DNA of 64,000 bases from an uncultured Clostridia bacterium (GCA_947630405.1 CANRHL010000001.1:92971-156970), one strand, 5' to 3'. Numbered from the stretch's first letter, positions 86 through 57,639 are shown. Program-made: numbers and translations. The notes: generated by a model from the sequence alone, not told the origin.

Positions 86-148
86 GAGAGTAAATTCTAC
101 AAAAATTTTTGTTTTTGTAAAAATTCACTCTTGTTTTTTTGTTTTTTT
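86..148 (+). terminator. imperfect long hairpin plus T-runs, probably the terminator of a gene lying upstream of the window
   Basis: GAGTAAATTCTACAAAAA (88-105) is imperfectly complementary to TTTTTGTAAAAATTCACTC (112-130), followed by TTGTTTTTTTGTTTTTTT. Confidence 0.35.
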
Positions 149-174
149 ATTTTTCGTGTGACAAACATTTAATT

Positions 175-696
175 ATGAAAAAATTTTTAGTTTTATTTTT
201 TGTTATTTTACTTGTTGGTGGCATTGCACTTGCCCTTCCTAAGACAGAGGATGACGATTATTTGCGCATACATATTCGAGCCAACAGCAACAGCGCGGTT
301 GACCAAAATGTTAAATATATTGTTAAAGATAAAGTAGTGGAATTTTTAACGCCGCATCTTTGCAACGTGGCAAGCAAAGACGAGGCAATTAAAATTGTAA
401 ATCGCCTCACACCGCAAATTGAAAGTTTGTGCCTTAGCACATTAAAAAACAATGGATTTAATTATTCGGTTAATGTGAAAATTAACAACGAATATTTTCC
501 AACGCGCACCTATGCAAACACCACCTTGGAAAGCGGCTATTATGATGCGGTTATTGTTGAACTTGGTGCGGCGGCAGGCGACAATTGGTGGTGCGTTATG
601 TACCCACCTTTATGTTTTGTGAATAAAAATGAAACGAACACGCAAATTAAATATAAATCGAAGATATTGGAGTGGATAAAATCTCTTTTCGATTAA
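175..696 (+). CDS. spoIIR: stage II sporulation protein R (SpoIIR)
   Basis: N-terminal signal/TM (MKKFLVLFFVILLVGGIALA). The LRIHIRANSNS and GDNWWCVMYPPLCF motifs match the SpoIIR family consensus as I remember it. Start moved to the ATG at 175 (track began at 139); no clear SD. Confidence 0.8.
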   Translation: MKKFLVLFFVILLVGGIALALPKTEDDDYLRIHIRANSNSAVDQNVKYIVKDKVVEFLTPHLCNVASKDEAIKIVNRLTPQIESLCLSTLKNNGFNYSVNVKINNEYFPTRTYANTTLESGYYDAVIVELGAAAGDNWWCVMYPPLCFVNKNETNTQIKYKSKILEWIKSLFD

Positions 697-706
697 GGAG
701 TGAAAA

Positions 707-1411
707 GTGAAAAAAGTTCTTTTATTTTTGCTTGTTGTGTTGTGCGGGGCGTTGAGCGTGTGGGGTGCAAACACAATTATAAAATTAAATAATGTTGCCG
801 AACAAAAAGCCGAGCATACCATTGCCCGCCTAGAGAATGTTGAAGCGGCAGTTGCCAACACGCGCGAAGTGCAAACGCGCCTTAAAAAGTGGGGTTATTA
901 TACGGGCAATGTGGATGGCATTAACGGGCCCAAAACTATTGCGGCAGTTAAAAAATTTCAAAAGAAATACGGCCTAACGCAAGACGGAATTGTGGGACCA
1001 TTAACCGCCGCCAAAATGGGGCTAAGCGTGAGTTCATCTAAAAGTTCATCCAACTATAACAGTAACGATAGATACCTGCTTGCAAAAGTAATTTACGCCG
1101 AAGCGCGTGGCGAAAGTTACACCGGGCAGGTGGCAATTGGCGCGGTGGTGTTAAATAGGGTTAGGGATAGCCGTTTTCCTAACACTGTTGCGGGCGTAAT
1201 TTATCAGCCTTGGGCGTTCACCGCCGTCAACGATGGGCAAATAAATTTAGAGCCAAATCAAACCGCATATCAGGCGGCAGACGATGCACTAAACGGCTGG
1301 GACCCAACCTATGGCGCAGTGTATTATTACAATCCGGCAACCGCCACAAGCAAGTGGATTTACACCACAAAAAAAGTTACGCAAATTGGCAAACACGTGT
1401 TTGCAGTTTAA
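707..1411 (+). CDS. sleB: spore cortex-lytic enzyme SleB-like (PG_binding_1 domain plus SleB/CwlJ-type hydrolase domain)
   Basis: GTG start 6 nt after AAGGAG. Signal peptide. KKWGYYTGNVDGINGPKTIAAVKKFQKKYGLTQDGIVG is a peptidoglycan-binding repeat. YAEARGESYTGQVAIGAVVLNRVRDSRFPNTVAGVIYQPWAFTAV is the hydrolase_2 signature. Followed by ypeB. Confidence 0.85.
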   Translation: MKKVLLFLLVVLCGALSVWGANTIIKLNNVAEQKAEHTIARLENVEAAVANTREVQTRLKKWGYYTGNVDGINGPKTIAAVKKFQKKYGLTQDGIVGPLTAAKMGLSVSSSKSSSNYNSNDRYLLAKVIYAEARGESYTGQVAIGAVVLNRVRDSRFPNTVAGVIYQPWAFTAVNDGQINLEPNQTAYQAADDALNGWDPTYGAVYYYNPATATSKWIYTTKKVTQIGKHVFAV

Positions 1412-1421
1412 GGGGGAATAA

Positions 1422-2849
1422 ATGAAAAAAGTTGTTAGTGAAGATATTGAAAAAGAAAAGCAAGAAAATTTGTCGAAAGTAAATCAAGATAAACAAACCA
1501 AGAAAAAGAGCAACGCGCAAAAAGCCGTGCCAATTTTGGTGGTGGTTATCATCACACTTTTAGTAATTTTAACTTGCGTGTTAATTGCCTATTATCAGGT
1601 GTATAAATCGGGCAAACAAAACGCCAACATTTTGGAGGGCGTTTACACTTCTAGTTATTATTCTATGGTGGATAATATCAATAATCTGGCGGTGGATATT
1701 TCCAAATATTCCACTCTCACCACCAAGCAAGCAAAGTTGAACACTCTAAACGATATGCGTGGCGATTGCAACTATATTTTGGCTGGCCTTAGCGTTATTC
1801 CAATTAACGAGGAAAATGTGGTTAGTGCCACCAAATTTTTTAACCAAGTTGACGGGCTTTGCGAGGCCTATGCAACAAAACTAAACAAGAACGAAGAACT
1901 AACGCAAGAGGAAGAAGTTATGTTTGATAAAATTGGCTTGGTGCTTGGCGAAATTAAGGAAAAATTCAACACGCAAAATTACGGCATGTACGACACAAAT
2001 TTTAATTTTATTGATGCCTCAATTTTTGATAACACGGGCATGAACGAAATTTCCTCTGGACTTGGCGATTTAACCAATGCAAGCATTGAATATCCATCTA
2101 TGATTTTTGATGGCCCGTTTTCAACCGCACTTGAAACAAGAGAGGTTAAAGGCCTACCTAAAAACGAAATTAGCAAGGACGATGCAACAAAATATTTAAA
2201 AGAAAAAGTTTATAAAAACCGAGATGTTGAAATTGAATTTAAAAATGAAACCGAAGGAGACATTTCCACATATGATTTTGAAATTATTATAGAGGGCAAA
2301 AAATATAACGCACAAGTAAGCAAGCGCGGTGGGTTACTTATAACCCTTTCAAGTTACGCAGAGGGTGGCGACCCAATTATGAAAGGCGAGCAAGCAAGCG
2401 AGATGGCAAACACTTTTGCAAATAACATTGGCTTTGAAAGTATGGAGCCGGTTTGGCTTGAAATTCACGAAAACGTGGCATATGTTAACCTTGCGCCAAC
2501 AATCGATGATGTTATTTATTACCCCGACCTTGTTAAAGTTAAAGTGGACCTAACTGGGCAAGATATTATTGGCTTTGAGGCAGTGAATTATGCACTAAAT
2601 CACGTAAAAAGAGCGCCACAATTTAATGTGGCCGAACAAGAAGCCGAAAAATTGCTTGGCTTTGACTACGAAATTTTAAAGATTTCAAAAACAGTTATAA
2701 AACTTGATTCGGGCAAGGAAATTGCCGCCTACGAGTTTATGACCGAGCGAATTGACGGGCTTTATTACTATTACATTGACGCCAACACCAACCAAATTGC
2801 CAAGACAATGAAAGTGGTGTCAATTAAGGGTGTTCAAAAATTAATTTAA
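1422..2849 (+). CDS. ypeB: germination protein YpeB-like (N-terminal TM, PepSY-like C-terminal region)
   Basis: Immediately downstream of sleB (conserved sleB-ypeB synteny). AAGGGGGA SD. One N-terminal TM helix. Size about 475 aa, typical of YpeB. Confidence 0.7.
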   Translation: MKKVVSEDIEKEKQENLSKVNQDKQTKKKSNAQKAVPILVVVIITLLVILTCVLIAYYQVYKSGKQNANILEGVYTSSYYSMVDNINNLAVDISKYSTLTTKQAKLNTLNDMRGDCNYILAGLSVIPINEENVVSATKFFNQVDGLCEAYATKLNKNEELTQEEEVMFDKIGLVLGEIKEKFNTQNYGMYDTNFNFIDASIFDNTGMNEISSGLGDLTNASIEYPSMIFDGPFSTALETREVKGLPKNEISKDDATKYLKEKVYKNRDVEIEFKNETEGDISTYDFEIIIEGKKYNAQVSKRGGLLITLSSYAEGGDPIMKGEQASEMANTFANNIGFESMEPVWLEIHENVAYVNLAPTIDDVIYYPDLVKVKVDLTGQDIIGFEAVNYALNHVKRAPQFNVAEQEAEKLLGFDYEILKISKTVIKLDSGKEIAAYEFMTERIDGLYYYYIDANTNQIAKTMKVVSIKGVQKLI

Positions 2850-3040: not shown

Positions 3041-3069
3041 TTGTATTTAAATTTTTCTTATGATATAAT
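3041..3069 (+). promoter_or_regulatory. sigma-A type promoter for the giant gene
   Basis: TTGTAT (3041-3046), 17-nt spacer, extended -10 TGaTATAAT (3061-3069). Confidence 0.55.
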
Positions 3070-3088
3070 TTGTATAAATTACAAATTA
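3066..3088 (+). promoter_or_regulatory. perfect 9-bp inverted repeat overlapping the -10 box and predicted transcription start (operator or 5' hairpin)
   Basis: TAATTTGTA (3066-3074), 5-nt loop, TACAAATTA (3080-3088). Confidence 0.35.
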
Positions 3089-3145
3089 AAAGTCGTAAAA
3101 TAAATATTTTTGTCTAGTATTGGCAAAATAAAAAGGGGAAGCATT

Positions 3146-6100
3146 TTGAAGGGGAAAATTAAAGTTTTTAGTAAAATAATTATTGCATTATTTGCGGTGC
3201 TTACCGCAGTTGTTTTAGTTGCCTTTGCGTTTAAAGATAAGGGGGCAAAAGGTTACGCCGAGTTTATTAAGAATGGCAACGATTATAGTGGCTTTACCGA
3301 GCAGGGCATGATTTTGTCGGTTGAAAAGGTTGGCGTTAGTGCGCAAGACGTTCAAAACTATGTGGATAATTCCGGCACTAGTTTTAAAACCCCGCTATAT
3401 TCAACCCCACTTGCTCCTGGAGAGGAAGAAGAACAAAAGAAAAATAAAGAAATTGAAAAAATGCTTGTTCCAGGCGGTGCATATTACTATAAAAATTTAA
3501 CCAACCAACTTGCAAGTGCTGGCAACTCAGAAAAATATGTTGTAAATAACGGCGAATTCGTTATGCTTAACAACCGCCTTTCTAACGGGCAATATATTAA
3601 CGACCAAATTAGTGATGCCTACACAGAAGAAGGCCCCGCAGTTAAAATGAGCGAAGCTATTTTAATTACGTTCGGTGGATATTTTAGATATACCGATGTG
3701 ACTGGCAATACCAAGTTCGGCAAGGCTGGGCAAGTTAATGATATGCAAGGAAGCATCGATGCACAAAATAGCGGCGCCAACATGGAGAATCTTATAGTTA
3801 ACATAACAAAGGATGGCCAGCCGCTTGAAATGACCAACGTTATTAGAACTTATAACACCTATTATCAGGATTTTGGGCTTATAATTCCGCAATTTCAAGA
3901 TGGTGAACAGAGCACCGAAGGGCATTATGTTTTAAACTTTAGTTATAGATACGATGGCAACCCTAGCTCTAACAATGTTTTTGAATTTAATTTGTTGTTT
4001 AGGTCGTCTTATCATGCAACCGAGTCGGTTGGCGAAGATCAATACACCGCCGAGCCAACAATATCCAAAGCGACAAGGGTCATAAATGAATCTAATAACC
4101 AATTTGAATATTTCTTAGGCAAGCAGGCTGACTACCCAGTTTTAGTTTACGATTACACTAAATATCACATGAGTTTCACGCACACTGCAAATGGTGTGGC
4201 AACAACTTGCGAATATACTGCCACAATTAATTCAACTGGCGAGTTATCCGCCACCCTTACTGCCGACATTCCTAACCAAACAGACGATGAACCGATATCT
4301 TACAACATGAGCAAATTTACGCGTGGCCGCAACAACTTTGTTGTGTTCGTGTTCACCGAAATGGGCAGTTACGATTTCCACTTTACCTACCTTTATGAAA
4401 CGATTGGCGAAAATGGCGCAATCAATTTAACATCTAGTGGAATGAACTTGCAGGTGGACGACCTTAGTTTGTCAATTTACGGACACGAACTTAAATATTC
4501 CCCAGTTGGCTATAGGGAAGCTGAATTGAGGAAAATAACTTTGTCTGGCAAACAGGGCGAGGCGGGGGAAAACCAGCGTGCCGATTTAATTGTGCCGGGC
4601 GATATTGAATATATTAACGCGCATAGGACAACTCAATTAAACGAACTTGGCCCTAAATTTGAATATAGAAATGATTCAACTGCAATGGTTGGCAGCGTAA
4701 TTGAAATGCTTGATGCAAACATTCAAACTCAGAGCGAAGAATATTTAACAAGCGGAGAGGGCATTACTTCAAAGGATGATGACATTATAGAGTTTGTAAG
4801 AGAGATAAACGAAATTAAAGACCAAGCAACAATTGACGCGGCAACAGAACAAAAGGTTGCTGATTGGCTTAACAACAAAATTGACTTTGTTAAAACTAAC
4901 CAGCCAAACATTTGGCTTGAAACTAATAATGCAATAAATAGAGATGCAAGTTTTTACTACACATCAACCAACAAAAACAATCTTTTAACTAAGCCTTCTC
5001 AAGATGGTGGAAGCCGCGTTCCACAAGAGCAACAGAAGTATATTAACACAACCACCTTCTCAACGGCAGGCTATTATTTAGTGTTTATTTATAACGATGT
5101 CTCAAATGAAAATGATTATTATCAAGTGTTTGCGTTTGAATATTCAGATGAAGTTATTGTGCCAAACATCGTTGAACAAAGCACAGAAGAATACGAGGGA
5201 AAAGTTATTGGCAGCCGCGGGTTTACAAACAAAAATGTTGAAATTTATTGGCAAAAACCAGGCGTGTTCGAAAAACAAGTTCAAGGCAAATATTATTATA
5301 TGTTGGATAGATATATTAACAATGAAATAACATTAGATTACATTGTTAGCCACGGCATTCAACAAAACTTAACTAGCGGGGACAAAAACATCGTTGGCAA
5401 CGAAGTGCCTGAAGGGCACGGCGCAACATTTGTTGTTAAAATTGAAGGCGATGGGCAGAGCTATAGAATTTTCACTATCGATAGGCAGCCAATTTCGGGC
5501 GTTGGGCTTTATGAGGTTAGGACAAACCCTGCAACTTTTGGCGGAGTGTATTACACAGTTAGCACGGATACAAACGGGCAATATGTTCAACTTACAAACG
5601 TTATAACAAACAGTTTGGCAACACTTAATTGGAACGACAAAAATAGTGGCGCAAAAATTACCGCACAATACACTTACACTCCGTTCACAAAATACACACC
5701 AACTGCCGATGACAATTCAAAAAAGATTAAAATGGTTGAAAACACCCCATCAAACGAACTATGGTTTACCACCAACTATCAGCTTGGGCAAACCAGTTCA
5801 ATTTTTGAGGACATTACAAAACCAACCGCGCTAAACGATATTTTAAGCGATGAAAATTTAATAAAAAATCAGGGCATATACCTATTTACCTTAACAGATG
5901 ATGCGGGCAACCAAACCAAATTTATGTTTGTTGTTGACGATACTGAATCCTACTTTTATGTGTATGAAGATGGCAAGGAAGGAGAAGGCAAATATTTAAC
6001 CGCATCAAGCGAGATGTATGCCTCCAGCACCAAAGTTAGAGTTAGCACGCACAAAGCCATTAACTTATTTTCAAGCACGGATGTAAGCACGGATATTGAC

Positions 6101-9100
6101 GAAACGGCAGACGACAAAAATAGGCAAGACCTTCTTAAAATTATATCTAACTTGAGTAGTGATGTTGAACTTAATAGCCTTAATTATTACACCGATGCCG
6201 GACACAGAAGTAACATTAGAAATTTGTTTGATAGCACCGGGCAGGGCACACTTGATTACTATTTAAAAGTTAGGAACAGAAGCCTTACCACATACGACAA
6301 TTTGGATAACTATAAGGGTGAGAACTCAATTGGCGAGATTTCAAGGATAAACAACTCAATTACAATTGAGCACAACGAAGAAGACGGAACTTCAACCGTG
6401 AGATTCCTTTATATAATTGGCGAAAATCAAATTTCTGCCGGCATAAATTTAGACCCAAGTAACACAAGTTACATTAGAAATTCAAGGTCATATTTGTTAA
6501 TTGAAATTAACACGGATAATTCACGTGGGTTCGTTTACTACGGCAACACCGATTTCACATCCAACCAAATCCCAGCAGATGGGAAATCTTCATCTGACGT
6601 GATTAGGTTATACACGGGCAACTCGCTAAACAATTTGGAAGCAACTTCGGACAACCATATTGCTTTTGTTTGGAACACAAGCAACAACGGCTTTACCGTG
6701 GAAAGCATAACTTATTCTTACTACACACTTGATGTTACAAATTACAGTGAGCAAACGGCATTCTACACACTTTCGGAAGAAGATGTTGTGCTTTATCAGT
6801 CGGGCGGTGGTTACGAAAAAGGCGCTTACACCTTTGATAACGGCAACCGCGCCTTTGCGCCAATTAGAAAAATTGGCAGGCAAACACAAGAGGGACTTTA
6901 TATAATCACGCGTACTTATACCGAGGGTGGCAATTTTGAAAAAGACGACCGAGAAAAACATTATTGGTTTATTGTGGATAGAAACGGCATAAAAACTTCG
7001 GGCATTAGCGGGGATAGAATAAGCACTAATTTGCTTAAAGACGAAACCACATTCAATTCATTCGGCCTTGTTGGCACAGAACTTGGCTCGGTTAATTTTG
7101 TGGAAGGCAAGGAACTTGTTGGGCCAATTGACTATAACGTTTATTTCACCACCAACAAACTTCCTGCAACACTTTCTATTCCAAACAACAAATATTATCA
7201 ATACGGCACAGGAGCAACACCAAATGTTTCTAACTACGCAATGGGTTTATTAAATGTTAAAGTGGTGTTTAAAGATACGGCATATCAACTTCAAAACATT
7301 CCAGGCTTTGCCGCAAGTAGCAACTTGTTAATTTATAGCGGCAATGCAGAAGTTAAAATAGACGCACAAAACAACCAATATTTTAATGTGGATTTCTATG
7401 ACTATCTCTCCAACTATAGCGATGTGCGCGTTAGAGATAGATTTGTAAATAGCGGAAACAACCACGATTGGATTTGCTTGCCGGGCGACTATGTTGTTAT
7501 TATTTCAGATAATGTAAGGAGCATTGAATATCCAAACGGCGGCAGCCACCAAATGGTGTTTGGCTTTAGGGTTAGCCCTAACGCACCGGCAGCAAATTTG
7601 GGCGCAATTTCAGAAAAAGTTTCAGGCGGAGAATTAACCTTTAGCGAAGGCGATAAACCAACCTTGAACGCGGACGGAAGTTATTCGTTAACCACAAACA
7701 AAGAATATATTGCGGTTGAATTGCCTGAATATGTTGTTGTGGAAAATTATTCCTATGAAAATAGGCAAAACGCATTGTACGCACAACTTGATGTTGAATA
7801 TTTGGTTGTAAAGAAAAATGGTGGTTACTATTTCAATTATAATCACGGAGATTTAGGCGAGGCAACGCACGACCTAAACAACGACCCAGATGTGGAAAAT
7901 AATAGATCTGGTCAAAACATTGTTTCGCGTAAAATTTATTTGAACACCGATTTAAGAAAAGCCGACGGCTCAATCAATTTAGATAATATCAGTACGCCAA
8001 TCAATTTTGAAATTACTGTAAGGTTTAAATTATATAACGCAAGATCAAGCGGATACGAAGAATTTTTAAATAGTTACTATTCATATGATGAAAATGGAAA
8101 TTTGCGGGATTATTATTACGCAACTTACAACATCACAATAGATAGGCAAGCACCAATTAATAACACTAATTATTTAGAGCAAAACGATGCACTTGTTAGC
8201 TATTATAATGAGGAAAATGGCACAAATAAAATGATTATGCCATATGCAAACGATAACCCTGTTTACTTCGCTAATAGATATGAAAGTTACTATTCAAGCA
8301 ACAAAAATCAAGCCAAAATTTATCCGTTTAAAGTTAGTTCAAGCACCCATTTTGATTTAACCGATGTAGAGCGAATTTTCTATAGGGCATACACATCTAA
8401 TTTAAACTTGCCAGTTGTGCCGGATGCCGAGCCAACTTGGCATGAATATAACCAGCGTGCTGACGATTTAACCTATGGTGATATAATTGGAGAATATCGT
8501 AGGGACCCTAACTTTAATATTGAAAACATTACCTATGTTGAAATGTTGGAAATAGATAAAGCGGGCAACGCAACGCAATATGTTGTGTTCTTTGATGATG
8601 GCTCAAATAGTTATGACGATTTAAACTTAGTGTTCAATGTTCGCACATTAAACAACAAACTCTTCGAAAATGATAATTTCACAATTAATCTATCCGAAAA
8701 CCGCACGCAAGATTTAAGCATATTTAATATAAGTGTGCCGCAAGATTTGGACGATGAAGAAGCCGTTTATGGTTCATATATCGACAAATTTTATCATTAT
8801 GAACTATTAAATTTGGCAACCAACACGCGCGTTAGCAAAAACACAAATTTAACAACGCAGTTCACAAAGAGCGGAATAATTTTGGATATTGTAAACTTAA
8901 TTAAAGATAGTGGCGAAGGCAACTACCGCCTAACCTTAATGAGCCGTACGCACACTGTTACAATAAATTTAAACTATTATAACGAAGCCACATTTGATGA
9001 AACCTTAACTCAACTAGACCCTGGCGCACTTGTGGAAGGCGTGGGCGAAAACACTCAAATCAATTTAACCAAAGCCAAAAAGGAAATTATTGAAGGAAGC

Positions 9101-11695
9101 GGAGTTTACAACTATGCAACCACAATAATAATTAGGTTAAACGGCGCGTTATATGATGAATACACCTGCAATCCAAATGACAATTATAGTTACACAAACC
9201 GCCAAGGCGATAAAGTGGAAATTATTTCCCACTTGGATGTTAACGGAAACTATCAAATTGAAATGATTGATGTTATGGGCGCGCGAAAAACCTATTACGA
9301 ATTTAACATTTCGCACGAGCCATATTCAATTTCGTTTGGCCTAGATGGGAGCGCAAATTATTATAAAGACCCTAACGGGAGCGACCCTTATTACTATTCA
9401 TTCAATCAAGCCAACATCTCTTATAATAGCGATTACTATTTGGCAACAATAACCTACTCAATTCAAAGCGAAGGCGTATCTCATATTATAAGCGGCAGTT
9501 CGGCTGGTGGAAATGCGGGCGGCATTAAAGTTGTGGACATCACAACCGAAAACGGCTTTACCATAATTAAACTTATTCCATATTTAAACGGAAATTCTCA
9601 AGGCGACCTTTTAACTGCCGAAATTAACATTTACAGGGAAGATAACACGTTTAGTTACACCTATCTTGTTAGGGTGGATAACCGATTGGGCGAAGTATGG
9701 CTGAGAAATGGCAAGGGTGAAAATTGCGATTATAGAGTTGATATCAATGCGGACCACACTCAAACCGAGAGGCCAACCAACACCTATTCCGGCACTTCAA
9801 CATTAAGTTGGGAAGTTAGCGAAAGCAATCAATTTGATTATGTTTACACTTTATATGAACAACTAGACACCGATGAAATTGTTGCCACCAACTTAAACGG
9901 AAGGCAAAATTACATTATTGATACGCGTGAAAATAGCAAGGGCATATATAGATTTGTTGTGGATGTTTATGCAAAAGGCATATTAGACCTTAACAATATA
10001 ACCGAGCAAGAGAAGTCGATATATTATCTTGGCAACAAGGTTTACACCTTTGTGGTTACCGCGAAATCTGACCAATTGTATTATGTGAGAACAGAAAATT
10101 TTGTGGTTATGGACGCGAACTCAACCTTTAAATGGAGCGAATTGTTTGCAGCAGATTCTGGCTTAAATTTAAGGCAGGATGAGAAGGATGCAATTTTAAA
10201 TTGGTTCCATTTGGGAGACGATTATAACATCATTGAAAACAAGATGTTCCCGCTTTACATTTCCAATGAGAACTTGGAAGTGGTGGTTGAGCCAGACCTT
10301 AACGCAACAAAACTTGCCTATCCAGCAATTGTGAACGGAAATTATTCTTTAGTGTTGTATAAAATTAGCACACCAAACTATAATTATTATATAGCCACAC
10401 TTAAAGCACCGGTTACAAACAATTTAGTGGAGAACTTCCAATTGGTTAGTTCAAGCACAACAAGGACGCTTGAAAACAACACCAACTACACCTTTGCAGG
10501 AAGTGCACAAGAAAGCTTTAGCCTAAACGCAACTCAAATTAGATACTCTAGCTTGTTTGAAAAGAAAAACACAATTTTGATGTACGTTTATTATAACGAC
10601 ACCTTTGTTAAAATGGTTGAATTTAACACCGATAAAATTAATTTTGACATTTTAGGCAATGGGCGCTACAGTTTTGTGTTTAAAGATTTGGCTGGCAACA
10701 CTCACTATTTTGGGCAGGGTGGTTCAACACTATATTTAACCATTTTGCGTGAAGTTGTTGTGTTCGTAAATGGCGAAGCACCAATTGAATACGCTTATTA
10801 TAACGATAAAGTTGAACTTTCAATTTACAATCCAGGCATGTATTTGCAATCCACTGAATCCGCGCCAATAAACGTAACCGCAACTCGTAACGGGCAAGTT
10901 TACACGCCTGAAATTGCTTCGTCAAAATACACGTTTAGTGATTATGGAACTTATAGGGTAACCGTTACCGCCACATATGTTGATAGCAATGGGCAGAGTT
11001 ATCCACTTACAAAAGTTTTCTCGTTCACAATTTTGAACAATGGCGAGGCAAGGCAGTCAATCGATTTAACCTCACTAAACGGCTACGAATTGATTAAAGC
11101 AACAAACAACTTAAATGAAGATATAACCGATGTTTTAATGGGCATTTTAAACCTAAACAACAGTTCGGAGGGCATGTTATTAACTTACGATAAACTGCTT
11201 GAAAACAGTGCAACACTTAACATAACGGCAGGCAAGCAAACCTTTACGCTAACATATCGCGCAAAAGCGGATATTTACCCAGAAAGAACGTTTACTTTTG
11301 CATTTGTTATGAACAACGAAGTTCCAACAATAGAGTGTTCATTAGCGCCGGGAGATAGCAACAACAAAGGCTTTAGCCTAACATTTAATCCGGCAATAAT
11401 TTACGAGCAAGTTGGCGAAAGTGCAGTTTACTTAAACAACACCCTTCTTGCCACAATTGATAAAGATGTTGCCGATTCAGTTGTTTCGTTCTACATTTCA
11501 CAAAAAGAATATGGTTCAGGCGATTATTACATTTCGCTAAGAACAAAATCGGGTGACATTATTTCACAATACATGGTAACCCTAACCGAGCCATTGAACG
11601 TTTGGGCAATAATCATTATTGTTGTTGTGGTGGCGGTGGTTATCACAGTTGTTACCATAATTATAGTTTTAAGAACAAGGATGAAAATTAGATAA
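3146..11695 (+). CDS. giant (2849 aa) surface protein with an N-terminal signal-anchor and a C-terminal TM anchor; no domain recognised
   Basis: Uninterrupted 8.5-kb ORF. There is no ATG before residue 67 of the track translation, so a TTG start is required. I prefer TTG 3146, 6 nt after AAAGGGGA (3132-3139), over TTG 3110. N-terminus KGKIKVFSKIIIALFAVLTAVVLVAFAF. C-terminus VWAIIIIVVVVAVVITVVTIIIVLRTRMKIR. N/Y/T/S-rich beta-type composition. Confidence 0.85.
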   Translation: MKGKIKVFSKIIIALFAVLTAVVLVAFAFKDKGAKGYAEFIKNGNDYSGFTEQGMILSVEKVGVSAQDVQNYVDNSGTSFKTPLYSTPLAPGEEEEQKKNKEIEKMLVPGGAYYYKNLTNQLASAGNSEKYVVNNGEFVMLNNRLSNGQYINDQISDAYTEEGPAVKMSEAILITFGGYFRYTDVTGNTKFGKAGQVNDMQGSIDAQNSGANMENLIVNITKDGQPLEMTNVIRTYNTYYQDFGLIIPQFQDGEQSTEGHYVLNFSYRYDGNPSSNNVFEFNLLFRSSYHATESVGEDQYTAEPTISKATRVINESNNQFEYFLGKQADYPVLVYDYTKYHMSFTHTANGVATTCEYTATINSTGELSATLTADIPNQTDDEPISYNMSKFTRGRNNFVVFVFTEMGSYDFHFTYLYETIGENGAINLTSSGMNLQVDDLSLSIYGHELKYSPVGYREAELRKITLSGKQGEAGENQRADLIVPGDIEYINAHRTTQLNELGPKFEYRNDSTAMVGSVIEMLDANIQTQSEEYLTSGEGITSKDDDIIEFVREINEIKDQATIDAATEQKVADWLNNKIDFVKTNQPNIWLETNNAINRDASFYYTSTNKNNLLTKPSQDGGSRVPQEQQKYINTTTFSTAGYYLVFIYNDVSNENDYYQVFAFEYSDEVIVPNIVEQSTEEYEGKVIGSRGFTNKNVEIYWQKPGVFEKQVQGKYYYMLDRYINNEITLDYIVSHGIQQNLTSGDKNIVGNEVPEGHGATFVVKIEGDGQSYRIFTIDRQPISGVGLYEVRTNPATFGGVYYTVSTDTNGQYVQLTNVITNSLATLNWNDKNSGAKITAQYTYTPFTKYTPTADDNSKKIKMVENTPSNELWFTTNYQLGQTSSIFEDITKPTALNDILSDENLIKNQGIYLFTLTDDAGNQTKFMFVVDDTESYFYVYEDGKEGEGKYLTASSEMYASSTKVRVSTHKAINLFSSTDVSTDIDETADDKNRQDLLKIISNLSSDVELNSLNYYTDAGHRSNIRNLFDSTGQGTLDYYLKVRNRSLTTYDNLDNYKGENSIGEISRINNSITIEHNEEDGTSTVRFLYIIGENQISAGINLDPSNTSYIRNSRSYLLIEINTDNSRGFVYYGNTDFTSNQIPADGKSSSDVIRLYTGNSLNNLEATSDNHIAFVWNTSNNGFTVESITYSYYTLDVTNYSEQTAFYTLSEEDVVLYQSGGGYEKGAYTFDNGNRAFAPIRKIGRQTQEGLYIITRTYTEGGNFEKDDREKHYWFIVDRNGIKTSGISGDRISTNLLKDETTFNSFGLVGTELGSVNFVEGKELVGPIDYNVYFTTNKLPATLSIPNNKYYQYGTGATPNVSNYAMGLLNVKVVFKDTAYQLQNIPGFAASSNLLIYSGNAEVKIDAQNNQYFNVDFYDYLSNYSDVRVRDRFVNSGNNHDWICLPGDYVVIISDNVRSIEYPNGGSHQMVFGFRVSPNAPAANLGAISEKVSGGELTFSEGDKPTLNADGSYSLTTNKEYIAVELPEYVVVENYSYENRQNALYAQLDVEYLVVKKNGGYYFNYNHGDLGEATHDLNNDPDVENNRSGQNIVSRKIYLNTDLRKADGSINLDNISTPINFEITVRFKLYNARSSGYEEFLNSYYSYDENGNLRDYYYATYNITIDRQAPINNTNYLEQNDALVSYYNEENGTNKMIMPYANDNPVYFANRYESYYSSNKNQAKIYPFKVSSSTHFDLTDVERIFYRAYTSNLNLPVVPDAEPTWHEYNQRADDLTYGDIIGEYRRDPNFNIENITYVEMLEIDKAGNATQYVVFFDDGSNSYDDLNLVFNVRTLNNKLFENDNFTINLSENRTQDLSIFNISVPQDLDDEEAVYGSYIDKFYHYELLNLATNTRVSKNTNLTTQFTKSGIILDIVNLIKDSGEGNYRLTLMSRTHTVTINLNYYNEATFDETLTQLDPGALVEGVGENTQINLTKAKKEIIEGSGVYNYATTIIIRLNGALYDEYTCNPNDNYSYTNRQGDKVEIISHLDVNGNYQIEMIDVMGARKTYYEFNISHEPYSISFGLDGSANYYKDPNGSDPYYYSFNQANISYNSDYYLATITYSIQSEGVSHIISGSSAGGNAGGIKVVDITTENGFTIIKLIPYLNGNSQGDLLTAEINIYREDNTFSYTYLVRVDNRLGEVWLRNGKGENCDYRVDINADHTQTERPTNTYSGTSTLSWEVSESNQFDYVYTLYEQLDTDEIVATNLNGRQNYIIDTRENSKGIYRFVVDVYAKGILDLNNITEQEKSIYYLGNKVYTFVVTAKSDQLYYVRTENFVVMDANSTFKWSELFAADSGLNLRQDEKDAILNWFHLGDDYNIIENKMFPLYISNENLEVVVEPDLNATKLAYPAIVNGNYSLVLYKISTPNYNYYIATLKAPVTNNLVENFQLVSSSTTRTLENNTNYTFAGSAQESFSLNATQIRYSSLFEKKNTILMYVYYNDTFVKMVEFNTDKINFDILGNGRYSFVFKDLAGNTHYFGQGGSTLYLTILREVVVFVNGEAPIEYAYYNDKVELSIYNPGMYLQSTESAPINVTATRNGQVYTPEIASSKYTFSDYGTYRVTVTATYVDSNGQSYPLTKVFSFTILNNGEARQSIDLTSLNGYELIKATNNLNEDITDVLMGILNLNNSSEGMLLTYDKLLENSATLNITAGKQTFTLTYRAKADIYPERTFTFAFVMNNEVPTIECSLAPGDSNNKGFSLTFNPAIIYEQVGESAVYLNNTLLATIDKDVADSVVSFYISQKEYGSGDYYISLRTKSGDIISQYMVTLTEPLNVWAIIIIVVVVAVVITVVTIIIVLRTRMKIR

Positions 11696-12435
11696 TGAAA
11701 AACGAACATGTGGAAAAGGTTCAAATCAACGACACCGAAATAGACTTCACCGAAGTGGTGCCGATAACTGAACTTATGCGTTTAATTGAAATTGCGGCAT
11801 TTAATCATGCAGATAATATTGGGCTTGACCATGCGTCAATGCTCAAATTTAGCAACGTTTTTTGGGTGGTTACAAAAATAAAATTGCACATAAAAGACGA
11901 TGTGCGCGCCCACGAAAAGATTTCCGTTAAAACGTGGACACACCCACCAACCATGATTAGGGCAATTAGGGATGCGGAAATTAAATGCAAAAACAAAGTT
12001 AAAGTTAAAAGTTCTAGTGAGTGGTGTTGCTTGGATTATGACACTCATAAAATTAGGAAATTTTCAACAATAAAATATCCCGACCTTGAAATGTTGGATA
12101 ACCGCGAAGTGAACTTAAAACCTTTAAATTTTAAGGCGGAAATGACAGAAAAAAATTATGTTTACACCAAAATTGTTAGGCCAACCGACATCGACCTTAA
12201 CATGCACACCAACAATTTAAAATATAATTACATTGCCCTTGACGCGTTTACTACAGACGAGTTTAAAGAGTTTAGAATAACAGACTATGAAATTCACTTT
12301 TTAAACGAAAGCCACGAAGGCGATAAAATTGACGTTTATAAACTGAAAAAGGGCAGAGTGTATGTTGTTGAAGGCAGAACTCAAGAAAAACCAATTTTTA
12401 GGGTGTTCTTAAAGGTTAAACCAAACAAAAAATAA
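11695..12435 (+). CDS. acyl-ACP thioesterase family protein
   Basis: Double hot-dog sized (246 aa). FWVVTKIKLHI and DIDLNMHTNNLKYNYIALDAF resemble the acyl-ACP thioesterase family consensus. The ATG overlaps the giant gene stop (TAATG). Confidence 0.65.
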   Translation: MKNEHVEKVQINDTEIDFTEVVPITELMRLIEIAAFNHADNIGLDHASMLKFSNVFWVVTKIKLHIKDDVRAHEKISVKTWTHPPTMIRAIRDAEIKCKNKVKVKSSSEWCCLDYDTHKIRKFSTIKYPDLEMLDNREVNLKPLNFKAEMTEKNYVYTKIVRPTDIDLNMHTNNLKYNYIALDAFTTDEFKEFRITDYEIHFLNESHEGDKIDVYKLKKGRVYVVEGRTQEKPIFRVFLKVKPNKK

Positions 12436-12581: not shown

Positions 12582-13832
12582 TTATTTTATTTCAATTTCA
12601 GTTATGTTTTCAGTTATTTTGTTGCCAACCACATCAAACGATAACTGCATTGCCTTTTCCTCAATTTTTTCTTCCAAATCTTGTGCGATGGCTTTAACAT
12701 TTTCTTTAAATTCCTCTCTAATTTCCGCCTTGTTCACTTCCAGGTGTTTGCTATCGGCAGATTTTAAGCGCAACTGAACTTCCACTTCCGGCTTTTTCTT
12801 TAATTCTCTATAGAACGCCTCGCCTTCGTGCGATAGGAAGAAAACGCCAACAATGCCCTTTTTCTTTGAACTTAGAATTTGGTAAGCAGCACGTTTGCGT
12901 GCGCCACCAACTATGTAGCCAAGTTTTTTTGAGTTAGTTTCCACAAACACATTGTAGGCTAAAATCTGGCCTTTGTTATCTAGTATCGTTATGCCGTCAA
13001 AGTTGAGCATGCGAACAAATAGGTCGGAGTAAACGCGCAGTTTTTGTTCGTTATAACTCTTGCTTTGGGCAAAAAGTTTGCTATAACTAATTGGCTCTTT
13101 TAGCCAAATGCCGTCCTCAAACAGGCCGGTATCTTTATAATCTTTATCCACAACCACGCAAATTGTGCCGTTAATATCGTTAACCGCACTTGTGAAAATG
13201 TTGTAATACATATTTTTCATATCTTGCAACTTGCGTTGCGTGGTGCGTAATTTTGAAAATGCTGCGTCAACAAAGGCACGAATTTCGGTGGCGTATGGGC
13301 TGAATTTGGATTTATCTAGCGAAAAGTTTACAATCAAGTTTCTGCCCGAAACCGAGTGCAATTGCATGGTGTAAAAGTTAAGCGGGCGGGCAAGTATGCA
13401 GTTAATTTTTGGCTGCTTATCTTTAATGGTTACATTCTCTTCAAGGCTTCTAATAAAGCCCTTATCCTTAATGCTGCCAAAAGACATTGCAAGCCCGTAA
13501 GTTATGGACTTTTCTTTAATATTAATAAACACGCACCAATCGTTACGGCACACGGCAAGTAAACTTTTCATGCGCATATTAAAGTTTGCGGCATCTTTAT
13601 CTTCAAAAATTGTAATGATGTGCGACTTTGGAATGCTTTTAATTAGCGCCTCAATGTTATCGGTGAACACAAGTTTTGGGCGAATTAGGTTGCCTTCTTC
13701 CTTATAATACATGATTTCGTTAAAGTTGTTTAGGAAGTGGCTCATAACAAGCGGCGGAAAATTAGCAAACTCTTGTTCAAAGAAATTTGTTACATTATCC
13801 TTGGCGTTGTCGAAAAAAATCATCTCATCCAT
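12582..13832 (-). CDS. DAC (diadenylate cyclase / DisA_N)-like domain protein with an unknown ~200-aa N-terminal domain and a C-terminal coiled coil
   Basis: In order: GTICVVVD, FDGITILDNKGQILAYNVFV, GGARKRAAYQI, VFFLSHEGEAF. These parallel the DAC motifs GALIVI, HDGAVI, GTRHRAA, VSEETG. No SD at the start. Confidence 0.55.
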   Translation of the reverse strand: MDEMIFFDNAKDNVTNFFEQEFANFPPLVMSHFLNNFNEIMYYKEEGNLIRPKLVFTDNIEALIKSIPKSHIITIFEDKDAANFNMRMKSLLAVCRNDWCVFINIKEKSITYGLAMSFGSIKDKGFIRSLEENVTIKDKQPKINCILARPLNFYTMQLHSVSGRNLIVNFSLDKSKFSPYATEIRAFVDAAFSKLRTTQRKLQDMKNMYYNIFTSAVNDINGTICVVVDKDYKDTGLFEDGIWLKEPISYSKLFAQSKSYNEQKLRVYSDLFVRMLNFDGITILDNKGQILAYNVFVETNSKKLGYIVGGARKRAAYQILSSKKKGIVGVFFLSHEGEAFYRELKKKPEVEVQLRLKSADSKHLEVNKAEIREEFKENVKAIAQDLEEKIEEKAMQLSFDVVGNKITENITEIEIK

Positions 13833-13914: not shown

Positions 13915-14160
13915 TTATGGTTTTAACTGAGATTTTAAATAAATTATTTCGTTTTTTAGCCGGTTGCACTCGGCCGTTTTTGCCTTTAACTCTTTAAGCA
14001 ATTTTTCGTTGGTTAGGTTCAAATTTAAAATTTCGGCTTTGGTGTCCAACTCAAGTTTGTGTTTAACCACGCCCATAATTCCTTTGAACAGGGCGGTGAT
14101 ATCGTCATCGGTTATGCTTGGCGGCATAACATAAATGTTGCAATCCTTTTTTTCCTTCAT
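13915..14160 (-). CDS. hypothetical small coiled-coil protein (81 aa)
   Basis: ORF only. C-terminal heptad-like LKELKAKTAECNRLKNEIIYLKSQL. Upstream of and same strand as the DAC-like gene. Confidence 0.45.
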   Translation of the reverse strand: MKEKKDCNIYVMPPSITDDDITALFKGIMGVVKHKLELDTKAEILNLNLTNEKLLKELKAKTAECNRLKNEIIYLKSQLKP

Positions 14161-14276: not shown

Positions 14277-15119
14277 ATGAATTATTTAATTTCAAAGTTA
14301 AATTGTTTTGTTTTGGAACTTAAATTAAAAATAGATGCTAACGCAAAATATAAAATTGAAAATCTTGAAAATGAGTTTTACACTTTTATTGTGAACGATA
14401 AACCTCTTTTCGTTAATTTTTTGGAAAAAAATAAACACCTAACAAAAATTGACTATTTAGGGGATTCATTTTTTTTCTTATTTTTTAATAGCAATGAATT
14501 AAACGATGTTCAATTAATAAAATGCAACAACGCTGACGTTTTAATTTCGTTTGGCGATAGGCTAAAATTGTTTGTTGATGGGCAGCCTGCGGTGGATTTT
14601 GAAAACTTAAATTTCTGTTACTCTCATCAAGAAACTTTTAACGCTTACACCATACTTTATTTTGAAGGGGTGCGTAAATTTTTTGTGCTTTTAAAGGGCA
14701 GGGAAGTTTGTGCGTATGATTTTTTTGATGAAATTAACAAGGGCGAAAATGAAATATATTTTATGGCAAAACTCTTTGATAGTTTAAATCACGGCAGGGT
14801 TTATCATGTTGAAAAGGGCGAGTTTAATTCATATCTTGTTTATCTTGACGAGTTTGAACTTAATTTAAAGCCCGAGTTCTGCCCGCTTGTGTTTCTTGAT
14901 TGCTTGCTTGCAAAAAACTATAAATACTGCGCAAATTTATTAGATGAAAATATCCGCCCGAGCGAGGAAAAACTAATTAAAGATTTTTTTACCGAATTTG
15001 ATTATTATTACCCGCTAAAACAAAATGCGGTTGCACTCTTTAAAAAAAATGCCCCTGCGGGCATTTACGAATTTGAAACTTTAAACCAGCTAATTACTAA
15101 CATCGTTTGCGTTAGGTGA
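14277..15119 (+). CDS. hypothetical protein (280 aa), no recognisable motif
   Basis: Long ORF in stop-rich AT-rich DNA. Its 3' end overlaps the convergent ATPase gene by 30 nt. Confidence 0.5.
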   Translation: MNYLISKLNCFVLELKLKIDANAKYKIENLENEFYTFIVNDKPLFVNFLEKNKHLTKIDYLGDSFFFLFFNSNELNDVQLIKCNNADVLISFGDRLKLFVDGQPAVDFENLNFCYSHQETFNAYTILYFEGVRKFFVLLKGREVCAYDFFDEINKGENEIYFMAKLFDSLNHGRVYHVEKGEFNSYLVYLDEFELNLKPEFCPLVFLDCLLAKNYKYCANLLDENIRPSEEKLIKDFFTEFDYYYPLKQNAVALFKKNAPAGIYEFETLNQLITNIVCVR

Positions 15120-19136: not shown

Positions 19137-19275
19137 AATTTACTCCTAAATTAATGTATGTTTAAATTTTTACATTATGATTGGCTTAAAAATTTTAAAA
19201 AAATAAAAATTGTCTAATTTGTTTGATTTATAGCAAATTTTGGGGTATAATAAAATTAACAAAAATAGGGGTAAT

Positions 19276-20979
19276 ATGAAAAAGTTAAGGTGGTTAGCAT
19301 TGTTTTTAATATTTGTTCCTTTTGCTTTTTTTGCGTGCAATAATAATAGGCCAACCCTGCCCGTACCAACAAACATTGAGGTGAGCGATGGCGTTATTAG
19401 TTTTGTGCGCGTTGAAAATGCAGACTCCTACATAATTTATATAAACGATTTTTCAGTTAGAATTTTAGATAAAGAGGTGGGCGAAAATAGCAAGGTTACA
19501 CTTAAAACGGTTGCCGGAGTGAATTATTTATACTACGATGCAAGCGCGGCGCTTGTTTTAGGCGAAAGTTACAATTTAAGAATTAAAGCCTCTGGGCCAA
19601 ACTTTAATGATAGCGAGTTAACCGAACAAATAACATACACTTACACCCTTCCACTTAACAAGCCAAACCGAGTGTTTTTAAACGGCACGGTTTTAAGCTG
19701 GGATGCGGTTGAAAGCGCAAGCTCATATAACCTTAAAATTGAAATGCCAAACGGCGAGAGCAGAACAGTTTCATGCAAGGATAATAATTACGATTTTGAG
19801 CGTGTTTTAACCGAGGCGGGCTATTACAATTTTTATGTTCAAGCAGTAAGCACAAACGAATTATATTCAAATAGCGACTTTACCGAAAAAACAACATATT
19901 TAAACAAAGTTGAGCTTAATGTGCCAACAGTTAGCGAGGTGCATGAAATAGATGGAGAATTGCATCTGCTTGTTGTGCTTGACGATAACGCCAACGCGCT
20001 AACAATTAAAGTGAACGGCAGCGAACTTACAAACGAGTTGACACCTGATTCAGTTTGGTGCGAAAAAACCGATAATTTGTTAGATGTTAATATAAATAAA
20101 TTTTTTAAAAATACAAATTTAGATTTCACTCAATTTAGGCAATATAGTGTTAGCGCAAAATCTAGTTACATAACGCACAACGAGGCGGAAAGGTTTTATG
20201 TTGACTCGCAGTATAGTGAAATAAAAATTTACGAAAAGAATTACACCCCTGCTGCACCAACGGTTAGCTTAGATGCTGAAAATGTTTTGCACTTTAGTTC
20301 AACCGAGCAGCAGTTCACAGGTTTTGATTTGTATGTTGCCACTCGAAGTGGGGTGGATGTGATAAGTGTTGGCACGCAAAGCGAAAATTACAAACTGTCA
20401 AGCAATGTCATCTGTGCGGCGGTTAGGTGTGTGGGCATGGGCAATTATGCTCCGTCAAAATTATCCAATTGGGTTTATGCGGATGGGCTAGATGAAATTG
20501 AACAAGAATTATCAATTAGCCAAAATGCAAACACATTTAGTTTCAGCGAAATTGTAGGTGCAAATTATGTTGTTGAAATGGACGGCGAAATAATTATCAC
20601 TAGCCAAAACGAAATTACGCTTAATTTAAAAGATAAAACAAACATTACCGTTACTGCAATAATTGAAGGCCACAAGCCAAAAACAGTTAGTGCGCAAATT
20701 GAAAAATTATTTCTTACCCTAAACGCAGCTGAAGGCGAAATTAATAGCACAATTGAATTTGCAAAAAATGAAAATGCGCTTGGCTATTATGTTTATATTA
20801 AATCGGGCGAGAGCGAGCAAAAAATTGACCACCTTTTTGTTAGCAACAAAATTGATTTATCTAATTATTTAGCGGGCGCGGGCGAATATGAAATTTATGT
20901 TCAAGCGGTGGCAGATAAATATAGTGAATTTAGAGATAGCGCAAAAGTAAAACTTGGCACAGTTAGAATTGCTGAATAA
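19276..20979 (+). CDS. surface lipoprotein built from Fn3-like modules
   Basis: The ATG at 19276 follows AGGGG. Lipobox FAFFAC. At least five modules with the pattern (V/L)xW/FxxVxxAxxYx(I/L), e.g. VISFVRVENADSYIIYI, VLSWDAVESASSYNLKI, IEFAKNENALGYYVYI. Confidence 0.8.
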   Translation: MKKLRWLALFLIFVPFAFFACNNNRPTLPVPTNIEVSDGVISFVRVENADSYIIYINDFSVRILDKEVGENSKVTLKTVAGVNYLYYDASAALVLGESYNLRIKASGPNFNDSELTEQITYTYTLPLNKPNRVFLNGTVLSWDAVESASSYNLKIEMPNGESRTVSCKDNNYDFERVLTEAGYYNFYVQAVSTNELYSNSDFTEKTTYLNKVELNVPTVSEVHEIDGELHLLVVLDDNANALTIKVNGSELTNELTPDSVWCEKTDNLLDVNINKFFKNTNLDFTQFRQYSVSAKSSYITHNEAERFYVDSQYSEIKIYEKNYTPAAPTVSLDAENVLHFSSTEQQFTGFDLYVATRSGVDVISVGTQSENYKLSSNVICAAVRCVGMGNYAPSKLSNWVYADGLDEIEQELSISQNANTFSFSEIVGANYVVEMDGEIIITSQNEITLNLKDKTNITVTAIIEGHKPKTVSAQIEKLFLTLNAAEGEINSTIEFAKNENALGYYVYIKSGESEQKIDHLFVSNKIDLSNYLAGAGEYEIYVQAVADKYSEFRDSAKVKLGTVRIAE

Positions 20980-21002
20980 AAACATTTTAACTAGTTAAAC
21001 TA
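20973..21002 (+). promoter_or_regulatory. possible forespore (sigma-G-like) promoter of the ger operon
   Basis: TGAATA (20973-20978), 17 nt, TAAACTA (20996-21002), compared with the sigma-G consensus TGAATA / CATACTA. The ATG lies 6 nt after the hexamer and there is no SD. Confidence 0.3.
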
Positions 21003-21007
21003 GCATT

Positions 21008-57348: not shown

Positions 57349-57639
57349 AATTTTCCTTTTTATATTTTTTTGCTTAATTATTTTATTAAAAAATTTTAAA
57401 TTTGTCAATAAAAGTTCAATAATTTTATCTAAATTCAAAAAAATAGCCAAAAAATACGCATTTTTTAATAAAATTTAAACAAATTTTAATTATTTTTTAA
57501 TTTTTCGTCCATTTTTCCGCCTATATATTTTTATAATATTAATTATAAAAAATTGTGATAATTATTTGATAAATAAATTTTAATGTGTTAAACTATTAGT
57601 GAATTAAGAAAAGCATTTAGTTCGTACATAAGGGGAAAA

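Follow-up and report, generated by a model that had tools for sequence, protein, structure and literature searches.

A giant, membrane-tethered protein of uncultured gut Clostridia with a predicted chain of beta-sandwich modules and a variable N-terminal tip

The stretch of DNA analysed here (the window) comprises 64,000 nucleotides from an uncultured Clostridia bacterium (GCA_947630405.1 CANRHL010000001.1:92971-156970) and encodes, on its plus strand, a giant protein of 2,849 amino acids. With a probability of roughly 0.55, we read this protein as a contact or adhesion fibre that would be tethered to the membrane by its C-terminus, span the cell wall with a chain of about 20 sandwich modules, and contact a ligand through a variable N-terminal tip. 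Its family is best read as an undescribed one of a known general kind, the giant immunoglobulin (Ig)-like surface fibres, with a distinctive conserved anchor and a non-repetitive, orthologous architecture. The gene and its product comprise the following features, in window coordinates:

3041-3069, plus strand: putative sigma-A-type promoter, with a -35 hexamer TTGTAT (3041-3046), a 17-nt spacer and an extended -10 element TGaTATAAT (3061-3069)
3133-3148, plus strand: Shine-Dalgarno (SD) sequence AAGGGGA (3133-3139) and TTG start codon (3146-3148), in a conserved region
3146-11695, plus strand: coding sequence of the giant protein, 2,849 amino acids plus stop, with full-length colinear homologues
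3146-3259, plus strand: probable cleavable Sec signal peptide, residues 1-38, with an n-h-c pattern and conserved -3 and -1 positions
3323-3655, plus strand: hypervariable distal tip, approximately residues 60-170 of the precursor, delimited by variability among close relatives
3413-10612, plus strand: predicted chain of divergent Ig/FN3/macroglobulin-like beta-sandwich modules, residues 90-2489, from AlphaFold2 and Foldseek
10463-11581, plus strand: membrane-proximal conserved module, residues 2440-2812, comprising by motif about four further sandwich modules
11588-11692, plus strand: C-terminal anchor, with EPLN (residues 2815-2818), predicted transmembrane helix WAIIIIVVVVAVVITVVTIIIV (2820-2841) and cytoplasmic tail LRTRMKIR (2842-2849)
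11693-12435, plus strand: TAA stop codon of the giant gene overlapping the ATG of the next gene (TAATG, 11693-11697), which encodes an acyl-acyl carrier protein (acyl-ACP) thioesterase (11695-12435)

The gene is a single open reading frame (ORF), given in the ORF listing as 3110-11695 on the plus strand and as 2,861 amino acids when counted from the first in-frame TTG; the TTG at 3146-3148, located 7 nt past AAAAAGGGGA (3130-3139), yields 2,849 amino acids. The first methionine codon is residue 55 from 3146, equal to codon 67 from 3110, in agreement with the original prediction, made by a model from the sequence alone, that a single ORF devoid of ATG over its first 66 codons is initiated at a TTG at 3146 behind a good SD sequence. 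The start coordinate of 3041 given there had to be abandoned, as it lies outside the ORF and coincides with the -35 hexamer of the conserved promoter.

A first search returned 17 full-length colinear homologues with 29–38% identity, and a scan of species-representative genomes identified 26 loci, all from uncultured gut metagenome-assembled genomes (MAGs) labelled Candidatus Onthoplasma, 'uncultured Clostridia' or 'uncultured Christensenella'; the NCBI taxonomy places Onthoplasma within the Christensenellales. Each locus encodes one orthologue, and the giant ORF was intact and colinear in 27 of the 30 fetched loci, the remaining three being cut by contig ends. The word-indexed homologue search, with 18–19 hits, strongly underestimated the family when compared to an exhaustive profile search with query residues 2440-2849, where 881 cluster representatives were found at E<=1e-3 and 390 at E<=1e-30, matching at the extreme C-terminus. 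Among the matches listed (150 of the 881), most are 2.4–3.05 thousand amino acids (kaa) long and the shorter entries look like truncated proteins, and family members sharing 20–27% identity with each other remain colinear with the same landmark motifs. The ratio of nonsynonymous to synonymous substitution rates (dN/dS) was 0.21 for the one pair with unsaturated dS, most pairwise values being unusable due to saturation of dS. A frameshift or an assembly artefact, which the original prediction had raised as a possible flaw, is thus excluded, as the ORF is intact and colinear across loci, the listed relatives are mostly full length, and dN/dS is 0.21; the gene is real. The distribution of homologues, which had been put forward as a further check, accordingly comprises 26 species-level gut MAGs and 881 cluster representatives, and the giant protein defines a family of at least several hundred sequence clusters without an entry in Pfam or NCBIfam.

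The protein is rich in N (10.0%), T (8.4%), Y (7.8%), S (7.6%) and G (6.7%), as had been noted from its sequence, and contains only five cysteines. The ectodomain is strongly acidic (360 D+E versus 219 K+R), and just two hydrophobic segments are seen on the Kyte-Doolittle scale, at residues ~3-34 and 2809-2849. No match above threshold was found in Pfam or NCBIfam, nothing among the PDB sequences matched the protein by phmmer or hmmsearch, and a Pfam search of 17 close and 17 distant relatives gave nothing consistent over the 35 members. Named Ig-like families (PKD, Big_x, FN3, Cadherin, HYR and similar) were likewise absent at the Pfam gathering threshold, the best match being a faint PKD at residues 2592-2610 (10.3 bits, cut-off 23.5). 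Tandem or long direct DNA repeats were not found in the giant gene, the family alignment gave no hits when aligned to itself with hhalign, and the internal similarity seen when windows were compared to the full family alignment was at motif level only (E ~1e-3 over 30–90 columns). The claimed lack of obvious tandem repeats is consequently borne out by the DNA repeat scans and the profile self-comparison, and that of LPxTG, SLH and named-domain motifs by regular-expression, Pfam and NCBIfam scans, none of which gave a match at threshold.

The ectodomain was modelled with AlphaFold2 in two segments (residues 90-1289 and residues 1290-2489), with an alignment of 18 sequences as input for each. 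The models have a mean predicted local distance difference test score (pLDDT) of 75.3 and 77.2, and comprise 41–42% strand and ~10% helix, in line with the proposed beta-rich structure; small helical inserts occur within the sandwich chain, e.g. at residues ~531-578. When compared to the PDB with Foldseek, all significant matches were multi-domain beta-sandwich chains (E 1e-11 to 1e-3), topped by Salmonella alpha2-macroglobulin (5.8e-11) and including complement C3/C4/C5, A2ML1, CD109, contactin, gp130-type receptors, protocadherins and fibronectin, as well as the bacterial adhesins or contact proteins PrgB (Ig-like domains, 8e-7), GhpA (2.7e-6) and SiiE (3.7e-4). The matches among viral proteins in BFVD were to chains of DUF11, Hoc, FN3 and Ig domains. 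TM-scores were ~0.1, and the match thus concerns the type of module and not the overall shape. Counting from the model element lists, ~150 strands are present over the 2,400 modelled residues, and four more modules are recognised by motif in the C-terminal 360 residues beyond the models, from which we estimate about 20 modules (18–25) in the ectodomain. A recurring motif, GxYxFxhxDxAGN...hxhD(R/D)xxP, is found at module ends and accounts for the sole internal similarity and the single weak DNA repeat. The statement that the protein has no recognisable domains therefore holds for its sequence, where no family threshold is reached, but not for its fold, which is predicted to be a chain of Ig/FN3/macroglobulin-like sandwiches. 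Segment-wise structure prediction followed by Foldseek had been suggested as a check and was carried out for residues 90-2489, with matches only to sandwich chains of this type; a concatenation of common adhesin domains, the outcome named as contradicting the original prediction, comes close to what the fold suggests, but no sandwich reaches the threshold of a named family. The beta-sandwich or Ig-like chain expected of a fibrillar-adhesin stalk is thereby found at fold level only, and tandem repeats from one recognisable family are not found (no DNA repeats, and no Pfam stalk family at threshold).

Both termini carry conserved hydrophobic segments. The N-terminus of the window protein consists of a lysine-rich n-region, a hydrophobic core of ~18 residues and a polar c-region ending in G-Y-A, followed by E, and across 36 family members a polar stretch of ~10 residues precedes [IVT]-[YF]-A and then [AV]. 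In the family alignment, position -3 (residue 36) is I, V or T in 28 of the 36 and position -1 (residue 38) is alanine in 27, with a c-region that is rather long at ~10 residues. The original prediction assigned a signal-anchor here; judging from the conserved -3 and -1 residues, a Gram-positive type I signal peptide cleaved after A38 is more likely. The C-terminal transmembrane helix with its basic tail LRTRMKIR, also predicted, is upheld by hydropathy as well as by conservation: no other part of the protein is as well conserved as EPLN-x-[WS]-A-IIIIVVV...-L-R-x-[KR]-M-[KR]-I-R, and the anchor is nearly invariant even in relatives at 20–28% identity (EPLNTVSII...LRKxMK[IV][RK]). Only ~4 linker residues separate the last sandwich module from the membrane. 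An LPXTG/sortase anchor was considered and rejected: the motif in front of the hydrophobic segment and basic tail is EPLN, and regular expressions found no LPxTG-like motif near the C-terminus. NCBIfam sorting-signal models gave no match at threshold on the last 60 residues, the best being LAVTG with 11 bits against a cut-off of 27, over the transmembrane segment only, and none of PEP-CTERM, GlyGly-CTERM, PGF-CTERM and similar NCBIfam models was listed for the C-terminus even at E<=10. Together with the lack of SLH or other wall-binding domains in the window protein and 34 other family members (Pfam, NCBIfam), this supports the earlier proposal of a large extracytoplasmic ectodomain that is tethered to the membrane without sortase, S-layer or other known anchoring signals.

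When the window was compared to 26 loci, the giant protein was found to be 29–40% identical, against mostly 50–90% for the flanking proteins (SleB 74–90%, YpeB ~70%, P-type ATPase 73–83%, thioesterase 48–57%). Conservation of the giant protein increases toward the C-terminus, and close pairs vary most in the first 200-residue bin and least in the last. In the close pair L003 and L007, the first bin is 82% identical compared to 94–100% elsewhere in the protein; nucleotide identity, mostly 93–100% over 22 kb, falls to 74.8% over codons ~67-167 of the giant gene. Over residues 41-200 of this pair, dS is 0.41–0.77 and dN 0.12–0.33, whereas the values elsewhere are 0.008–0.11 and up to 0.015, respectively, so that both are raised roughly ten-fold or more in the tip. 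Such a localised rise of both dS and dN is a signature of an imported, recombinant tip, and on this sequence comparison the tip of the giant protein appears to be exchanged by recombination. Outside the giant gene, positions 301-600 of L003 are the sole other sharply divergent patch between the two loci (83.7% identity), and an insertion or deletion relative to L007 is located around 2701-3300 of L003, covering an acetyltransferase gene.

A 296-nt AT-rich intergenic region, which bears the putative promoter, separates the ypeB cluster from the giant gene. A promoter of the form TTGnnn-17-TGnTATAAT is found 85–165 nt 5' of the start codon in all 26 loci, with an 18-nt spacer in L020; a generic promoter scan missed it because the -35 hexamer agrees with TTGACA at only 3 of 6 positions. 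The giant gene would thus be transcribed from a housekeeping-type promoter of its own. Around the start codon, AAATAAAAAGGGGAAGCATT-TTG-AAG-GGG-AAA (window 3126-3157) is kept at the nucleotide level across L001-L029 even though the orthologous proteins are only 30–40% identical. Most loci use TTG as the start codon; L023 uses GTG, L028 ATG, and L003, L007 and L011 an ATG located one codon 5' of that position. The SD-like sequence AAGGGGAA is present twice, before the start and as codons 2-4 of the giant gene. The doubled SD-like sequence and the retained weak TTG may be a device for a low or regulated rate of initiation. Translation would begin at this conserved weak TTG and could be coupled to that of the downstream acyl-ACP thioesterase, the TAATG overlap being kept in most Onthoplasma-type loci. 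In the deeper-branching loci L033 and L037, a VirD4-like gene occupies the position downstream of the giant gene in place of the thioesterase. Rfam gave nothing in the 5' region of the giant gene and no family at gathering score over the whole 64 kb (no tRNA, rRNA or riboswitch; ARAGORN was not run).

On the favoured reading, the giant protein would be exported through Sec as a type I membrane protein, the signal peptide of ~38 residues probably being removed, and the last 30 residues (transmembrane helix and LRTRMKIR) would stop transfer and act as the tether, leaving the remaining ~2,770 residues outside the cell. With ~20 (18–25) non-identical modules arranged head to tail and ~4 nm each, an acidic fibre of the order of 80–100 nm would result, its conserved base directly on the membrane, its middle part crossing the peptidoglycan and its N-terminal end projecting, where it could hold other cells or surfaces. 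The tip, which is the fastest-changing part and is apparently swapped by recombination, is proposed as the ligand-contacting end. Several observations weigh against this reading. Searches of the window protein against Pfam, NCBIfam and PDB sequences, and of its relatives against Pfam, revealed neither a ligand-binding domain nor a known adhesive head; the first 130 residues of the window protein are either outside the models or modelled with low confidence, and its hypervariable tip is no more than suggestive. In contrast to typical fibrillar adhesins, the protein shows no tandem repetition of sequence, and its length and the order of its modules stay the same down to ~20% identity within the family, so that a defined structural or machine part fits as well as an adhesin. 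Moreover, the inter-module geometry of the models is unreliable, with predicted TM-scores (pTM) of 0.47–0.49, and the models span residues 90-2489 only. The organisms are uncultured gut Clostridia, probably with small genomes, the genome sizes being documented for relatives of the window's organism.

A structural component of the envelope, i.e. a wall-spanning scaffold, spacer or S-layer-like element needed for architecture rather than binding, would account for a single orthologue per locus with a constant length of 2.4–3.05 kaa among the matches listed, for the non-repetitive module order kept down to ~20% identity, for a membrane anchor that is the best-conserved part and for the housekeeping-type promoter. 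A localised, recombination-like hypervariable tip would be unexpected in a pure spacer, and with no SLH or other wall-binding domain detected by Pfam or NCBIfam we consider this alternative improbable. The position directly after spoIIR-sleB-ypeB, which the original prediction had pointed out, could instead indicate a sporulation or spore-surface protein, acting in the intermembrane space or as a spore appendage: the giant gene adjoins these genes in the window and in all Onthoplasma-type loci, and still does so in the distant loci L032, L034, L039, L041 and L044 (inverted) and L037 (direct orientation). The position itself is correct, but the Onthoplasma-type loci share the same order over ~20 kb (amidase, spoIIR, sleB, ypeB, giant, thioesterase, three unknown genes, P-type ATPase, rubrerythrin), and since the whole neighbourhood is syntenic and the giant gene has its own sigma-A-type extended -10 promoter after the intergenic region, the adjacency is not specific and says little on function. 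The flanks available contain no spore genes in L035, where dnaA and dlt-like genes are the giant gene's neighbours, or in L031, where the giant gene follows jag, tspO and DUF378, and no match to a spore protein family was obtained from Pfam or NCBIfam; a role in the spore is thus quite improbable. Barely credible is a membrane-anchored, bacterial alpha2-macroglobulin-like protease trap, which the top Foldseek matches (Salmonella alpha2-macroglobulin, complement C3/C4/C5, A2ML1 and CD109) might suggest, as the low TM-scores are those expected from generic matching of long sandwich chains and Pfam gave no hits to A2M families. An identity as alpha2-macroglobulin was rejected, as there is no CxEQ and the models contain at most 41 helical residues per 100-residue window, too few for a thioester domain.

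Another alternative arises from deeper-branching relatives, where a gene for a VirD4/TraG-like coupling ATPase (Pfam domains T4SS-DNA_transf, TrwB_AAD_bind and TraG-D_C) is located beside the giant gene in nine loci (L032, L033, L034, L035, L037, L041, L044, L047 and L054) and in at least three different arrangements. Such a neighbour is present in seven of the eight loci with >=2.5 kb of upstream flank, in addition to two loci with a downstream VirD4-like gene. A VirB2/T4SS_pilin-like gene encoding 119–144 amino acids is found nearby in L034, L041, L044 and L047, and ypeB-sleB-spoIIR is still close, often inverted, in several of the VirD4-linked loci. The giant fibre might accordingly serve as the extracellular, contact-making part of a minimal cell-to-cell transfer system resembling type IV secretion, in which the fibre would bring the envelope against a partner, and the VirD4-type ATPase and VirB2-like protein would move DNA, proteins or metabolites. 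The presence among the fold matches of PrgB, the adhesin of a Gram-positive conjugation system, and the precedent of giant Ig-like surface proteins in nanohaloarchaeal symbionts (PMC10266531) point in the same direction. On the other hand, VirD4-like and pilin-like genes are missing from the 64-kb window, as they are within 8 kb of the giant gene in all the Onthoplasma-type loci, no VirB4-type ATPase or other component of a type IV secretion system (T4SS) was seen adjoining the VirD4-like genes, and the adjacency could be synteny inherited within one clade, which makes a transfer system possible but unlikely. Rather doubtful, too, is the proposal that the fibre, a lone VirD4-type ATPase and a VirB2-like membrane protein constitute an undescribed, chromosomally fixed contact/transfer apparatus of the genome-reduced gut Clostridia of UBA1242. 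If true, the apparatus would let these bacteria latch onto partner cells and exchange material, as a bacterial counterpart of the nanohaloarchaeal proposal; in the window's lineage, the ATPase would be encoded at another place in the genome, or that part of the system would have been replaced. Between the VirD4-like and giant genes of L035 (1394-5812), AMP-binding, PP-binding and MBOAT genes are found together with a 335-aa gene without a Pfam hit; we read this region as a putative dlt-like (D-alanylation) operon.

The favoured reading as a contact or adhesion fibre was compared to known systems. Fibrillar adhesins with Ig-like stalks (SiiE, PrgB, SasG/Aap, BapA-type) have in common with the giant protein a very long sandwich chain, an acidic ectodomain, a variable distal end and, judging from its probable signal peptide, Sec-dependent export, and PrgB and SiiE are among its fold matches. 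Unlike these adhesins, the giant protein has no tandem repeats, no sign of copy-number variation, no recognised adhesive head and no module at any Pfam Ig-like threshold; it is anchored by a C-terminal transmembrane helix instead of LPXTG/sortase or type I secretion retention, and its counterparts throughout an entire bacterial family are strict, colinear orthologues. With respect to PrgB-type surface proteins of T4SSs in particular, linkage to T4SS genes is seen only in the deeper-branching orthologues and not in the window or the Onthoplasma-type loci. The staphylococcal Ebh/Embp proteins are giants with an N-terminal export signal and a C-terminal membrane anchor with a basic tail, are thought to span the Gram-positive wall, and consist of helical FIVAR/GA-type repeats in many near-identical copies. 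The giant protein would share this end architecture but differs in being non-repetitive, with ~42% strand and ~10% helix in the models. Bacterial alpha2-macroglobulin and complement C3, the best cumulative fold matches, are chains of macroglobulin-type sandwiches, the bacterial members being membrane-tethered; the giant protein lacks a lipobox and a thioester motif, as well as any helical domain of the thioester or CUB-like type. The grappling hook GhpA of Aureispira (PDB 9flw) is a giant extracellular Ig-like chain for cell-cell contact, with a fold match at E 2.7e-6, but it belongs to a Gram-negative predator with another mode of export and assembly and has no sequence similarity to the giant protein. 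Nanohaloarchaeal symbionts encode giant Ig/FN-like, membrane-anchored proteins ('SPEARE') linked to TraG/VirB4/VirD4-class ATPases (PMC10266531). The likeness lies in giant Ig/FN-like surface proteins, genome-reduced and partner-dependent organisms, and a genomic linkage to ATPases (PMC10266531), and we regard SPEARE, by analogy, as a functional analogue. SPEARE proteins differ in belonging to another domain of life, in being three times longer, and in carrying beta-propellers together with a fused ATPase domain; the two are not detectably related in sequence, and the window itself is without such an ATPase gene nearby.

Onthoplasma belongs to the family UBA1242 in GTDB, with genomes of ~0.7–1.6 Mb that have missing glycolytic steps, no ATP synthase and no standard transporters, an unexpected retention of sporulation genes, and a proposed partner-dependent lifestyle via uncharacterised membrane proteins (PMC12306168). 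Onthoplasma-type bacteria have also been described as common genome-reduced specialists in chicken caeca (PMC13155120). No description of the giant protein was found in the literature, and neither PMC12306168 nor PMC13155120 mentions it. At the size reported for relatives, the 8.55-kb giant gene would take up ~1% of the genome. The UBA1242/Onthoplasma group is widespread in animal and human guts, uncultured, and so far without a named attachment or exchange structure (PMC12306168, PMC13155120); the giant protein is a concrete candidate for such a structure: it is encoded in every fetched locus of the family, is predicted to be surface-exposed and evolves fast, with a tip that looks swappable. 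The link to VirD4-like ATPases in sister clades provides a lead to how such bacteria may interact with other cells.

The upstream neighbours, which are not part of the unit, are:

139-2849, plus strand: spoIIR (139-696), sleB (707-1411) and ypeB (1422-2849)

Further downstream (19240-24774, plus strand), a 579-aa ORF without a Pfam match comes before a gerA/gerB/gerC-type germinant receptor operon (21008-24774), which, along with spoIIR, sleB and ypeB, makes clear that genes for sporulation and germination have been kept. Three conserved genes of unknown function (12582-13832 and 13915-14160, minus strand; 14277-15119, plus strand) lie just downstream of the giant gene and thioesterase region and are syntenic in most loci. 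The 416-aa downstream protein is 61–72% identical across loci and has a faint match to a DisA-type (DAC) nucleotide-binding domain (E 0.05), and the 280-aa downstream protein evolves as fast as the giant one (27–42% identity). A second giant ORF of >2,136 amino acids (57592-64000, plus strand) is cut by the end of the window; its sequence shows no relationship to the first (best BLASTP E 0.5), and it has a lipoprotein-type signal (…AVFFGCGQE) and an N-terminal domain that, judged by eye, resembles the Big_2 type. Another probable surface or interaction protein is encoded at 33375-35225 (minus strand), with 616 residues and BspA-type leucine-rich repeats (LRR_5, E 3e-25).

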